From assembly GCA_016182875.1 (NCBI GenBank), contig JACPFQ010000001.1:20-64019 (forward strand): a DNA stretch of 64,000 nt, written 5' to 3'. The notes below the pieces were generated by a model, which had not been told where the DNA came from, did not search any database, and was given only the letters and a program-made list of their open reading frames with translations. Shown here piece after piece: positions 38,200 through 43,215 of the stretch (its first letter is position 1; every line of letters begins with the position of its first letter). A program made the position numbers and the translations under genes. The stretch is from Candidatus Doudnabacteria bacterium (GTDB lineage: Bacteria; Patescibacteriota; Doudnabacteria; UBA920; O2-02-FULL-48-8).

Positions 38200-38320
38200 A
38201 GGGGAAGTAAAAGAATTGGGTTGGGCAGGGGAGGTACGGTTCAAGCTTGTACTCTACCCCACCTAACCTCCAGCCCCCGGCGGCAGGTGAGGGAGAGGGT
38301 TTCTATTCTAGGGGAGGAAT
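38200..38320. repeat. G-rich REP-like palindromes (CTTCCCCTCCTAGGATAGGAGGGGAAG; GGGGAGGTACGGTTCAAGCTTGTACTCTACCCCACCTAACCTCC; TTCTATTCTAGGGGAGGAAT)
   Basis: perfect 12-bp-arm palindrome; a 50-bp unit repeated at 41124-41172. Confidence 0.65.
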
Positions 38321-38345
38321 CCTGGCGCTTGCGGTTAAACGCAAG

Positions 38346-39713
38346 CTACTTAACGTCAGCGATATCGCCTTGCATGTAAAAGGCATTCTCATCCTTATCG
38401 TCATGCTTGCCGTCGAGGATTTCTTTGAAGCTCGCTATCGTATCTTTCAATGATACGTATTTGCCGGCACGCCCCGTGAAGACCTCGGCCACGAAAAATG
38501 GCTGGGACAAAAACTTCTGGATTTTTCGGGCACGAGCCACAGCCAGTTTGTCTTCTTCAGACAATTCTTCGATGCCCAGAATGGCAATGATGTCCTGCAA
38601 GTCCTTGTATTTCTGCAAGACCTTCTGCACGCCTCGAGCGACTTCATAATGGTCCTTGCCGACAATGTTCGGGTCCAAAACCGTTGAGGTTGAGTCCAAA
38701 GGATCAACTGCCGGGTAAATCCCTAATTCAGTTAAGCCGCGTGACAAAACTACAGTTGAGTCCAAGTGAGCGAAGGTAGTAGCCGGCGCCGGGTCAGTCA
38801 AATCGTCTGCCGGCACATATACTGCCTGAATCGAAGTTATTGAGCCATGTTTGGTTGAGGTGATTCGTTCTTGCAACTCGCCCATGTCAGTTGCCAAAGT
38901 TGGCTGATAGCCTACAGCCGACGGAATTCGTCCGAGCAAAGTTGACACTTCGGAGCCAGCCTGAGTAAACCGGAAGATGTTATCGATAAACAAAAGCACA
39001 TCCTGTTTTTCCTCATCACGGAAGTATTCGGCTAGCGAAAGGCCAGTTAGGCCAACTCGCGCCCTGATCCCAGGCGGCTCATTCATCTGGCCAAAAACCA
39101 GTGTGGTTTTGTTGAGCACGCCGGACTCTTGCATTTCTTTATATAAATCGTTTCCCTCGCGCGAACGTTCGCCAACACCAGCAAACACCGAAACTCCGCC
39201 GTGTTCAGCCGCTATATTGCGGATTAATTCGGTGATAATTACTGTTTTTCCAACCCCCGCTCCCCCGAACAAGCCGACCTTGCCGCCTTTGACTATTGGA
39301 GCAATCAAATCGATAACTTTTATCCCGGTCTCCAAAAGCTCGATTTTGGTGGATTGCTCATGAAACGCCGGCGCGGGCTTGTGAATCGAATATTTCTTGG
39401 CGGTCTTAACAGGCTCTTTGCCGTCGATCGGTTCTCCTAATGCATTGAACATCCTTCCCAGAGTTTCCTTGCCGACCGGAACCGAGATTGGAACGCCGGT
39501 GTCGGTTACTTCCAGGTTTCTTTCCAAGCCGTCGGTTGCGCCCATGGCCACAGTCCGAACCTGATTGGATCCGATGTGCTGGGCCACTTCCAGGACTAAC
39601 TTTTGACCGTTGACTATTGATACTTCGAGGGCGCTTTGAATTTCCGGAAGTTTGTCAGTAAACTCCACGTCGACTACTGCTCCAATGACTTGTGTGACCT
39701 TGCCTTTATTCAT
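38346..39713 (-). CDS. atpD: F0F1 ATP synthase subunit beta
   Basis: [33 protein letters not shown], full-length beta. Confidence 0.95.
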
Positions 39714-39773
39714 AAGTATTGTCTTCGCTTTAATAATATGGTAAATTTAATGGCTCAAAAGGAGGATGCCGAC

Positions 39774-39995
39774 ATGAAAGACATTTCTCGGCTTTCTGAC
39801 AGAACGCTACTGAACCGGTTCGAACGGGCGTGCGGCTGGCCCGCGTATAGGATGCCACGTGCGGAAGTGAGAAAACTGAAGCGTGAGCTTCTCCGTCGGC
39901 TCGGATCCAAGAAGAACGCGTCGGGGACCCGCAACGGAATGACGCCACTGCCGCCGGATTCATTCGACGCGGCGAATGCCGACAGCATTCGGTGA
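39774..39995 (+). CDS. hypothetical protein, G+C-rich module 6 (73 aa, Arg-rich)
   Basis: AAAGGAGG upstream of the ATG; G+C-rich; terminator follows. Confidence 0.45.
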   Translation: MKDISRLSDRTLLNRFERACGWPAYRMPRAEVRKLKRELLRRLGSKKNASGTRNGMTPLPPDSFDAANADSIR

Positions 39996-40013
39996 ACCCG
40001 ATGGGCGCTGCAC

Positions 40014-40058
40014 GTGCGAGTTGCTCACGCACTTTGTGAGCGACTCGCCTTTTTTATC
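40014..40058 (+). terminator. rho-independent terminator (GCGAGTTGCTCAC...GTGAGCGACTCGC plus CTTTTTTAT)
   Basis: 13-bp stem with one mismatch followed by a T-run. Confidence 0.55.
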
Positions 40059-41088: not shown

Positions 41089-41100
41089 ATGGTTTTATTC

Positions 41101-41195
41101 CCCTCCTAGGTTAGGAGGGGCTAGGGGAGGTACGGTTCAAGCTCGTACTCTACCCCTCCTAACCTCCCCTATTCTAGGGGAGGAATTTTTACGCA
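41101..41195. repeat. G-rich REP-like palindromes (CCCCTCCTAGGTTAGGAGGGG; second copy of the 50-bp GGGGAGGTACGGTTCAAGCTCGTACTCTACCCC unit; CCCTATTCTAGGGGAGG)
   Basis: same family as 38200-38320. Confidence 0.65.
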
Positions 41196-42682
41196 AAACC
41201 TTTCTTAAATTCTTCAATTACCTTCTTCAATTCTGGTTCGACTTCTTTTTCAAGGTCTTTAGCGCTTAAGATGGCTTGCAGCAATTTCTTATGCTGCACT
41301 TTCAGGAACTGATGAAACTTTGATTCCCAATCGCGGATTTTATCCAAAGGCACATCGTCCAGATACCCGTTGGTCGCGGCATAAATAATCGCCACCTGGT
41401 TTTCAACCGGCATGGGCTGATATTGATCCTGCTTGAGCACCTCGGTGATCCTGCGGCCGCGCTCGATGCGGGCTCTGGTTTGCGGGTCGAGGTCAGAAGC
41501 AAACTGGGCGAATGCGGCTAGCTCCCGGAATTGCGCCAGGTCCAGTCGAAGCTTGCCGGCTACTTTTTTCAGCGATTTGATTTGCGCCGCTGAACCCACG
41601 CGGGAAACCGAAATACCCACATTCAAGGCCGGCCTGATGCCCTGATAAAACAAATCTGATTCCAAATAAATCTGGCCGTCAGTAATGGAAATGACATTGG
41701 TCGGGATGTAGGCCGAAACATCCCCGGCCTGCGTTTCGATGATTGGCAAGGCCGTCAATGAACCGCCGCCGTGTTGTTTGCTTAATTTCGCCGCACGCTC
41801 AAGCAGGCGCGAGTGCAGATAGAACACGTCTCCAGGATACGCCTCTCTTCCAGGCGGCCTGCGGAGCAGCAGGGAGATTTCGCGGTAAGCCACGGCATGC
41901 TTGGACAAATCATCATAAATAATTAAAGCGTCCTTGCCCTGGTCCATGAAGTATTCGCCCATGGCCGCACCAGCAAATGGCGCTAAATACGAAAATGAAG
42001 CAGGGTCAGAGGCCCCAGCCACCACAATGATTGTGTGCTTCATGGCGTCATTCTTTTCCAGTTCGCCCATGATGCGGGCGATTTTGGATTCCTTCTGCCC
42101 GATGGCGACATAGATGCAAATTACGTTTTTCCCCTTTTGGTTGATAATAGTGTCAATCGCAATCGCGGTTTTGCCGGTCTGTCTATCCCCAATAATCAAT
42201 TCGCGCTGTCCCTTGCCGATAGGAATCATGCCGTCAATCGCCTTAATGCCGGTCTGAAGCGGCTGGTTTACCGGCTGCCTGGCCATGACCCCGGGCGCGA
42301 TTTTTTCAAGCGGATATGAAGTTTTTGAACTGATCGGACCTTTGTTGTCCACTGGCTGGCCTAGAGGATTAACTACGCGGCCAATAAACCCTTCACCTAC
42401 GGGCACTGACAAAATCTTCCCTGTGCCCTTAACCCTATCCCCTTGTTTTATGTGTTCATAATTGCCCAGAAGAATCGCGCCAATAGTGTCCTGCTCCAGA
42501 TTTAAGGCAACTCCGAGAGTGCCGCCTGTAAACTCAAGCATTTCCGAAGCCTTCGCGTTTGAAAGCCCTGAAACGCGGGTAATGCCGTCGCCCACGGCCA
42601 GAACCGTGCCAACCGTTTCCGCTTTGGTCTCAGCCTGAAACTTTTCGATTTTAGCTTTCAATTGCTCGATAAGGTTGCTCAT
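41189..42682 (-). CDS. atpA: F0F1 ATP synthase subunit alpha
   Basis: [20 protein letters not shown], full-length alpha. Confidence 0.95.
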
Positions 42683-42683
42683 A

Positions 42684-43097
42684 CTACTCTTGGATATTTT
42701 TCTTTAATTCGGCCAGCGATTTTTTAACAGACGCATCGATCATCAGGTCATCAACGGCCACCACCACGCCCCCGATCAAGTTTTCGTCAATTTTTTTCTT
42801 CAACTCGACTTTGCCTTTTAAGTACTTGTTAAGCACCTCTACTATCTGTTTCTCGTTGTCAGAATTTAAGGGATGAGATGAGGCTACTTCGGCCTGTTTG
42901 ATACCTTTGCTTTCCAATTCCTTCTTATGGAATTCCGCTTCGATCTCACCGAACATTCTCAAGTCGTTGTTCTCGGACAAAATCCGCACAAAATTATCTA
43001 AAATCTTATCCAAGTCCTTGGGAGAAGTGTTGATAGCAACCTCGTGCAAAGCGGCGGCATATTGTCTGGCAGAAAATTTCATAGGTTTTCTTTGCAT
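42684..43097 (-). CDS. atpH: F0F1 ATP synthase subunit delta (OSCP)
   Basis: position between atpA and atpF; ARQYAAAL...[20 protein letters not shown]. Confidence 0.75.
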
Positions 43098-43215
43098 CTA
43101 CCCCTCTTAGTCTCCCCTATTCTAGGGGAGAAACCCTAACGCTTTACCTGAAGGATTCGGCCGCAGTTTTACCCTCCTAGAATAGGAGGGTCGGCGGTTG
43201 TTTAAAGCTAACACT
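43098..43215. repeat. G-rich REP-like palindromes (CCCCTATTCTAGGGGAG / CCCTCCTAGAATAGGAGGG)
   Basis: same family as 38200 and 41101. Confidence 0.6.

Follow-up and report, generated by a model that had tools for sequence, protein, structure and literature searches.

A C/G-tract palindromic element in three gaps of a Candidatus Doudnabacteria ATP synthase operon and in frame inside atpG

A 64,000-nt stretch of the metagenome-assembled genome (MAG) of a Candidatus Doudnabacteria bacterium, a member of the candidate phyla radiation (CPR)/Patescibacteria (assembly GCA_016182875.1, contig JACPFQ010000001.1, positions 20 to 64,019; hereafter the window), contains an ATP synthase operon in which a family of C/G-tract palindromes occupies three intergenic gaps and occurs once more inside atpG, the gene for the F1 gamma subunit. 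Sequence comparison supports the view that the atpG segment arose as an in-frame insertion specific to this lineage, and that the inserted palindromic DNA shares homology with the intergenic family. We consider it probable that a small selfish element, non-autonomous and recently acquired, gave rise to all these palindromes by spreading locally in the operon, the atpG copy being a tolerated survivor. The copies are as follows; HP1 and HP3 denote hairpins of the composite arrangement described below.

40828-40872 (40827-40873 with the flanking TA), minus strand: in-frame element in atpG, 45 nt, codons 73-87, residues T73-G87, TPPSSPPKIGGDRGG
38178-38330, plus strand: composite copy in the atpD-atpC gap, consisting of HP1, a 45-nt unit, a 31-nt extra segment and a right-end block
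41098-41186, plus strand: composite copy filling the atpA-atpG gap, with HP1 at 41100-41120, the 45-nt unit at 41123-41167 and HP3 at 41163-41183
43097-43240, plus strand: composite copy in the atpF-atpH gap, with TCTACCCCTCTTAG and HP3 at 43111-43131, HP1 at 43171-43191, a variable hairpin and GGGGAGGTAGA

An in-frame palindromic insertion in the gamma subunit

The sense strand of the atpG element reads TA-C7-TTCAT-C7TA-AGA-TAG7-ATA-G7-TA, a compact nested hairpin with the architecture TA-C7-N5-C7TA-NNN-TAG7-N3-G7-TA and a predicted folding energy of -42.7 kcal/mol (z = -4.2). It could be aligned with no gap to the TACCCCTCCTAACCTCCCCTATTCTAGGGGAGG block in two intergenic copies and in copies from Saccharibacteria, as well as to the C7 copies of other genes, and 20 columns of the alignment are invariant; its differences from the intergenic copies are T-to-C and A-to-G changes that keep the complementarity. 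The alignment bears out the preliminary description of this DNA, which had proposed a palindromic repeat read in frame in atpG and related to the intergenic family. The translation given there, VTPPSSPPKIGGDRGGMIPR, was also right, and the location was corrected from 40805-40870 to 40827-40873.

The host gene is intact: its 302-aa product, which is 100% identical to an NCBI protein assigned to Candidatus Doudnabacteria, matched PF00231 over nearly the whole profile (E = 6.8e-85, positions 2-282 of 285). The element was absent from all 31 aligned orthologs (60-76% identity) and from all 119 other listed gamma orthologs, confirming the proposed insertion. Where the window gamma reads KRVVTPPSSPPKIGGDRGGMIPR, the nearest orthologs read KRVLP(A/Q/E)G....K, and the solved gamma chains show an alignment gap precisely at the insert. 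The same picture emerged from a census of loop length, measured as the distance from SRPY to SD(R/K)GL in 116 of the 120 listed gammas: the loop is 53 residues long in the window, against a most frequent length of 44, and in 96 of the 116 orthologs it measures 42-45. The region had been called normally compact, but it is better described as a recurrent insertion site, since 7 of the 116 orthologs are expanded there, several of them through other palindromes. The net gain in the window loop is 9-10 residues, though the element comprises 15 codons; the boundaries of the insertion are therefore ambiguous. One possibility is that some of the native loop was lost, the other that native Pro and Gly codons expanded into the outer C and G runs.

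In the AlphaFold2 model of the protein (predicted template modeling score, 0.71), residues 66-90 form a low-confidence coil (predicted local distance difference test score of about 54) between a helix (residues 4-59) and a strand (residues 91-97). The insert is thus predicted to sit in a disordered loop that joins the N-terminal helix to the first beta-strand. In F1 structures, the equivalent gamma loop belongs to the globular portion of the central stalk, beneath alpha3beta3. The insert is presumably transcribed and translated with the rest of the gene.

The segment has four 7-nt runs of C or G, which are error-prone, and natural Pro/Gly-rich loops exist. We therefore asked whether errors of assembly or sequencing in these runs had produced it, or whether it is a low-complexity loop of ancestral origin with no relation to the intergenic palindromes. 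However, four Logan assemblies from four separate sequencing runs encode the identical 302-aa gamma with the open reading frame (ORF) intact, which disposes of a frameshift or sequencing error, and the segment is missing from every other listed ortholog. Together with the gap-free alignment to the family and the nested hairpin, this makes both explanations extremely improbable, and we regard them as effectively refuted. The Logan contigs break in the repeats that flank the element.

Composite copies in the intergenic gaps

The pattern CCCTCCTAGNNTAGGAGGG, allowing at most three mismatches, had four matches in the window, all in the ATP synthase operon, against 0.09 expected. Perfect hairpins with stems of at least 9 bp numbered 15 in the window, compared with 1.0 +/- 1.1 in shuffled sequences, a 15-fold over-representation. 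In a scan of the whole window, exact 9-mers of the family clustered solely at 38178-38320, 40827-40873, 41098-41183 and 43099-43237, and no family copy was found in the 64 kb outside the operon; the copies all lie within 5 kb and share one orientation. Their core hairpins have perfect stems of 9-15 bp and 3-nt loops (38178-38210, 40837-40861, 41100-41120, 41163-41183, 43111-43131 and 43171-43191). In these six hairpins, 54 of 54 stem cells are Watson-Crick pairs with no G.U pair, and the three variable stem positions were each changed only by double changes; the tally comes from a small sample of hairpins picked as palindromes and is therefore indicative only.

The intergenic copies follow a composite plan: HP1 (CCCCTCCTA-NNN-TAGGAGGGG), a G-tract (TAGGGGAGGTA), a variable hairpin and then TACCCCTCCTA-ACCTCCCCTA-TTC-TAGGGGAGG-AA. 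The two halves of the composite are imperfect inverted copies of one another (31-nt halves, about 71% alike), and the whole folds either as three hairpins or as a single long one. In the atpD-atpC copy, HP1 (TTACTTCCCCTCCTA-GGA-TAGGAGGGGAAGTAA, 38178-38210) has a perfect 15-bp stem that encloses CTTCCCCTCCTAGGATAGGAGGGGAAG (38181-38207), and the right-end block is CTATTCTAGGGGAGGAAT (38303-38330). In the atpA-atpG copy, which starts 2-5 nt past the stop codon of atpA, HP1 corresponds to CCCCTCCTAGGTTAGGAGGGG (41100-41120), and the last G-rich arm, AGGAGGGG, is the sole Shine-Dalgarno-like sequence before the atpG start; this arm is buried in the fold predicted for the gap (-48.8 kcal/mol, z = -4.9). 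The atpF-atpH copy carries CCCTCCTAGAATAGGAGGG within HP1 (43172-43190) and CGGCGGTT...AACCGCCG as its variable hairpin, and its GGGGAGGTAGA (43229-43239) pairs with 43097-43106 to form an outer stem (gap fold, -60.6 kcal/mol, z = -4.4). The sequences quoted in the preliminary description were all present in the window, at positions offset by 0-25 nt. Its repeated unit does occur twice, as 45 nt at 38227-38271 and 41123-41167 (96% identical) and not as 50 bp at 38248 and 41124.

The family had also been said to fill every intergenic gap of the operon, but this is true of only three of the seven junctions (atpF-atpH, atpA-atpG and atpD-atpC). The atpB-atpE gap contains no family copy, the atpE-atpF gap is filled by an unrelated AT-rich palindrome (43753-43820, a 34+34-nt inverted repeat), and atpH and atpA have no gap between them. 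The 466-nt atpG-atpD gap contains a different palindrome (40117-40174) and an ORF on the opposite strand.

A role as terminators was considered and rejected: the sense strand has no T-run and no terminator was predicted at the elements, only the antisense side of HP3 being terminator-like. Because no sense-strand terminator was predicted there, read-through is plausible. Rfam models in gathering mode returned tRNAs alone over the window, and in E-value mode the elements drew only generic hairpin look-alikes of the microRNA and small nucleolar RNA kind, far below threshold.

Unrelated palindromes in related Doudnabacteria operons

The family was absent from the ATP synthase operons of six related Doudnabacteria, in which several junctions are compact or overlapping. 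The family therefore appears to be a recent arrival and not a conserved regulator. The related operons hold unrelated palindromes in corresponding gaps. Wherever the atpA-atpG gap is at least 60 nt long, it contains a strong palindrome (four related operons and the window, z -3.6 to -6.0); in two related operons, this gap is zero. Three of the relatives' atpD-atpC gaps were folded and all were structured (z -2.2 to -3.7); the atpD-atpC gaps of loci L175 (7816-7902), L176 (7356-7419) and L177 (7277-7360) hold a hairpin with short tandem repeats of one arm behind it (CCCCATA x4, CCCTA(A/T)A x4 and GAACTTA-like). The gammas of other Doudnabacteria contain in-frame palindromes of other families, in the same loop and in others (L175, L176 and L177; -24 to -30 kcal/mol).

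One related operon, L005, duplicates a module of its own, GATTCCCGC...GCGGGAATGGA(A)CAG(A/G)GGAGAA, in two gaps (1899-1982 and 2382-2492), directly 5' of the start codons; this is within-operon duplication as in the window, with another sequence. Additional genes also occur between the subunit genes of relatives, namely a 160-aa ORF between atpG and atpD in L175 (5953-6435) and a methyltransferase gene between atpF and atpH in L176 (2399-3004).

Relatives of the element in other genomes and genes

When one genome per GTDB species was scanned for exact matches to CCCTCCTAGNNTAGGAGGG, the matches listed came from more than 117 genome stretches in many phyla, including Saccharibacteria, Kerfeld-, Komeili-, Peri-, Ames- and Doudnabacteria, Geobacterales, Burkholderiales, Bacteroidota, Acidobacteriota and Nitrospirota. 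Some of the matches lie outside the family and are ordinary terminators, such as the one at locus L030, downstream of an apparent tRNA 3' end. Some Saccharibacteria MAGs carry at least 6-9 loci each. The flanks of HP1 are conserved as (T)TAGGGG(T/A)GGTA followed by a variable hairpin and, in Saccharibacteria, by TACCCCTCCTAACCTCCCCTA...TAGGGGAGGAA, a composite like that of the window. The Saccharibacteria copies (about 130 nt) have 12-nt terminal inverted repeats, TAGGACTTACGC/GCGTAAGTCCTA, spaced 112-147 nt apart, with TA ends; TA dinucleotides also bound the atpG element. A strict regular expression for the full element gave few exact matches, indicating that the outer arms are variable. Among the viral contigs of IMG/VR, a single one carries the HP1 pattern (IMGVR_UViG_3300047659_000078; L178/L179), with three copies within 24.7 kb, which gives no link to phages.

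The C7 variant was found at 49 metagenome loci, about half of them within long ORFs, where it reads PPxSPPK[IL]GG, and many of these loci share the nested architecture of the atpG element (for example, L126, CCCCCCCTAATTTAGGGGGGGATAGGGGGGGT). Each strand of the element has exactly one stop-free frame, read as Pro-Pro...Lys-Ile/Leu-Gly-Gly, and the frame with CTA-NNN-TAG is always closed. We examined 145 element sites for a stop-free frame that crosses the element and extends at least 60 codons on either side; 40 had one. The in-frame copies nearly always read PPxSPP(K/N)(I/L)GG(E/D)xxG, or PSYSRRG in the case of HP1. Their hosts, assigned with Pfam, include SecA, two class-I aminoacyl-tRNA synthetases, BipA/TypA, a Mur ligase, SerRS, MurB and the ATP synthase gamma of a Saccharibacterium, and the ORFs of SecA, MurB, SerRS, the class-I aminoacyl-tRNA synthetase, BipA and the Mur ligase are intact. 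Alignment with solved homologs shows the MurB segment to be an insertion of 11 residues and places the SerRS element inside a 37-residue insertion. The Saccharibacteria gamma has two composite insertions, one of which aligns with the insert of the window in the same loop (SSGSPPRVGGVREG versus PPSSPPKIGGDRGG).

Two of these hosts carry further repeats: the class-I aminoacyl-tRNA synthetase of L134 has another repeat-like in-frame segment, HSAKGGSVPGGK, and the BipA of L126 has a duplicated YASGA(L/A)P...AKPDS segment. The peptide SAKGGSASGG also occurs in three Doudnabacteria gammas, and the L177 DNA that encodes it is a palindrome (-26.5 kcal/mol).

Comparison with known palindromic elements

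No description of the C/G-tract hairpin family was found in open-access text by topic or literal-sequence searches. In its behavior, the family is closest to the Rickettsia palindromic elements (RPEs), ten Rickettsia-specific families of about 100-150 bp, each encoding a conserved peptide (Ogata et al. 2000; reviewed in PMC10969869). As with RPEs, palindromic repeats lie between genes and in frame in unrelated housekeeping genes, at sites that would suit the fold, with the ORF unbroken and the segment absent from orthologs; the window has one copy in a gene and three between genes, and the host ORFs are stop-free and intact. In contrast to RPEs, the minimal unit comprises 45 nt of C/G tracts of unrelated sequence, is found in CPR bacteria and other phyla, and encodes a low-complexity Pro/Gly peptide. 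Because composition and size clearly differ from those of RPE-1 to RPE-10, we did not assign the element to the Rickettsia families.

The repetitive extragenic palindromic (REP) sequences and REPINs are mobilized by RAYT (Y1) transposases and lie outside genes, scattered in tens to hundreds of copies (PMC3116915). They resemble the present elements in their short GC-rich hairpins, in the imperfect inverted doublets that fold as one hairpin and in their intercistronic position after stop codons. However, the present copies are confined to one operon within 64 kb, and the atpG copy and many others elsewhere lie inside genes, so the label "REP-like" used in the preliminary description is apt only in a loose sense. 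Bacterial miniature inverted-repeat transposable elements (Correia, ERIC, Nezha and QMITE1; PMC10969869) are likewise small and non-coding with hairpin potential, and the Saccharibacteria relatives with their 12-nt terminal repeats and TA ends recall them; the window copies differ in having no terminal inverted repeats, and neither a target-site duplication nor a parent insertion sequence was identified.

The mitochondrial double-hairpin elements (DHEs) and GC clusters (Allomyces DHEs, yeast GC clusters and sponge RHEs; PMC2800124) share the double hairpin, the GC-rich modules in an AT-richer genome, nested insertion and occasional copies in coding regions. In contrast to the present family, they are organellar, and their sequences are unrelated. 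Mitochondrial byp elements are bypassed instead of translated. Among multicopy within-gene sequences of Geobacter (PMC2996986, PMC2700814), the family of G. metallireducens is a GGACCGG heptamer repeat and thus different, whereas Geobacter MAGs also carry CCCCTCC/GGGGTGGT hairpins; the present sequences were not found in supplements of the G. bemidjiensis paper. By this comparison, the C/G-tract family appears to belong to none of these sequence families, and its behavior matches that of RPEs.

Origin of the palindromes

The selfish-element reading would account for the data as follows. The modules, TA-bounded hairpins of the form CC(C/T)C(C/T)CCTA-NNN-TAGG(G/A)G(G/A)GG that are often nested in a second C/G-tract stem, would have been recently acquired by the Candidatus Doudnabacteria lineage and would have spread within the ATP synthase operon to three intercistronic gaps and one site in atpG. 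As each strand keeps one Pro/Gly frame open, a genic copy in that frame would add only a flexible Pro/Gly-rich peptide, and such copies may survive purifying selection at structurally permissive loops. The atpG copy, adding 15 codons, would be one such survivor. The preliminary description had called it exapted; a function of the peptide found no support, and toleration is the simpler reading. We infer the mobility and near-neutrality of the element, the translation of the insert and the mechanism of transposition; the TA ends and the Saccharibacteria terminal repeats would fit a TA-target transposase acting in trans. Several points weigh against this reading. No transposase, target-site duplication or pair of occupied and empty sites was demonstrated, and when the Saccharibacteria ends TAGGACTTACGC...GCGTAAGTCCTA were searched in the window, they did not flank its copies, although the outer C/G-tract stems might act as terminal repeats in their place. 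The restriction of all copies in the 64 kb to one operon could equally fit a function or a local copying mechanism, and the near-identical short hairpins of distant phyla could partly be convergent. The boundaries of the atpG insertion are also ambiguous, its net gain being smaller than the element.

An RNA-level function of the intergenic copies is unlikely as the primary explanation. The hairpins would be intercistronic structures that tune subunit stoichiometry, with the atpG copy as a by-product: standing just 3' of atpF, atpA and atpD, they could protect the upstream mRNA and sequester the downstream Shine-Dalgarno sequence. The occupied gaps are precisely those 5' of the genes for the single-copy delta, gamma and epsilon subunits (atpH, atpG and atpC), the atpA-atpG copy closely follows a stop codon and buries AGGAGGGG, and the atpA-atpG and atpD-atpC gaps of relatives are structured as well. 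However, the palindromes in the corresponding gaps of relatives come from unrelated sequence families, two of the related operons lack a gap between atpA and atpG, and the family occurs elsewhere in unrelated contexts and within many genes. All-Watson-Crick stems with double changes only, in the small palindromy-picked sample, also suit DNA symmetry better than selection on RNA. A conserved regulatory RNA was rejected because the six related operons are without the family. The RNA-structure and selfish-element readings are mutually compatible, and because gaps in relatives are structured and the atpG Shine-Dalgarno sequence is sequestered, we keep a side effect on expression, or co-option, as a live rival.

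It is very unlikely, in our estimate, that no transposition took place and that the palindromes arose and became perfect in place through template switching at quasi-palindromes during replication, in atpG starting from native Pro-x-Gly codons and possibly templated by the copy 290 nt upstream. One observation in favor of such a process concerns the downstream gene for the CCA-adding enzyme (cca), where a palindrome with a perfect 15-bp stem, GGGCACACTTTTAAC-gatc-GTTAAAAGTGTGCCC (37325-37358), encodes WGTLLTIVKSVP; the length is unchanged in comparison with four orthologs, and the arms are complementary at 15 of 15 positions versus 3-7 of 15 in the orthologs. This palindrome therefore arose in situ in conserved coding sequence. 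Orthologous gamma loops of the type LP(E/Q/A/D)G, encoded as CCN NNN GGN, would offer a starting point, and the absence of terminal inverted repeats from the window copies, their clustering in one orientation within 5 kb and their strictly Watson-Crick stems are also in line with it. Against it, the atpG copy is about 80% identical to its neighbor and about 85% identical (by eye, over roughly 45 nt) to the L126 BipA copy of another organism. That unrelated genomes and genes carry near-identical elements points to a sequence family that propagates and not to independent local origins. A broader reading, which we consider rather unlikely, is that of an undescribed cross-phylum, coding-compatible element that is mobile or self-copying, needs no transposase of its own, spreads and becomes perfect by template switching at the microhomology of C runs and G runs, and is a general source of the lineage-specific loop insertions in essential proteins of CPR bacteria. 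Pro-x-Gly surface turns (CCN NNN GGN) would then be natural landing pads, and the cca palindrome would reflect the same process without a change in length.

Other features of the locus

The operon lies on the minus strand in the gene order atpBEFHAGDC and is followed by the gene for the CCA-adding enzyme. Its genes are as follows.

44138-44944, minus strand: atpB
43817-44035, minus strand: atpE
43246-43749, minus strand: atpF
42684-43083, minus strand: atpH (delta), starting at the ATG at 43083, 132 aa as in orthologs
41189-42682, minus strand: atpA (alpha), 497 aa, of ortholog-like length despite the element abutting its stop codon
40180-41088, minus strand: atpG (F1 gamma), 302 aa, PF00231, ORF intact, host of the in-frame element
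38346-39713, minus strand: atpD (beta), 455 aa
37655-38104, minus strand: atpC (epsilon), 149 aa

We also considered whether the elements alter the neighboring proteins and rejected this, as the termini of atpA, atpD, atpF, atpH and atpC keep their length. The ORF list placed the atpH start at the ATG at 43097, upstream of the real start at 43083 (orthologs, 132 aa, MKFTAKQYA...). Every Doudnabacteria delta subunit matched the OSCP profile over its C-terminal two-thirds only, the two-thirds being those of the profile.

The atpG-atpD gap splits the operon, while in some relatives this junction is 4 nt or overlapping. The unrelated 58-nt palindrome in it, TGTCATCCTGAACGCAGTGAAGGATCTCATGAGATTCTTCGCTCCGCTCAGAATGACA (40117-40174), lies 5 nt past the atpG stop codon; a sequence of this type encodes HFERSEKSL in frame in the gamma of another Doudnabacterium (P0014/L175), and a similar element occupies the atpA-atpG gap of L005. 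The opposite-strand ORF (39750-39995, plus strand) encodes 81 aa (73 aa if it starts at the ATG at 39774), carries an AGGAGG Shine-Dalgarno sequence and is accompanied by a strong intrinsic terminator (40016-40048); its product had no Pfam match. Elsewhere in the window, two identical hairpins, CCCCTCTCCT-ggag-AGGAGAGGGG, lie at 60838-60861 and 62735-62758, neither spanned by a long open frame, and a similar motif adjoins a family hairpin at the Doudnabacteria locus L060. A perfect hairpin with a 9-bp stem, CGCCCGAAC-ttt-GTTCGGGCG (25362-25382), lies within a 700-aa ORF and reads RPNKVRA.

Implications

Selfish palindromes in frame in essential genes have been documented mainly for Rickettsia; here, they appear in CPR/Patescibacteria and beyond. 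The element is unusually small (45 nt), and its design keeps a Pro/Gly-coding frame open. The intergenic copies follow stop codons and bury the atpG Shine-Dalgarno sequence, and they may therefore alter the ratios in which the subunits of the operon are expressed. For annotators and structural modelers, the family is a caution that such loops are repeat-derived. It also shows, as a natural experiment, where conserved machines such as the ATP synthase rotor have loops that can accommodate additional peptide. If general, the phenomenon would account for some of the insertions in CPR housekeeping proteins that have so far lacked an explanation, and a cross-phylum element, if real, would be a general source of lineage-specific insertions in gamma, SecA, MurB and the aminoacyl-tRNA synthetases of CPR bacteria.

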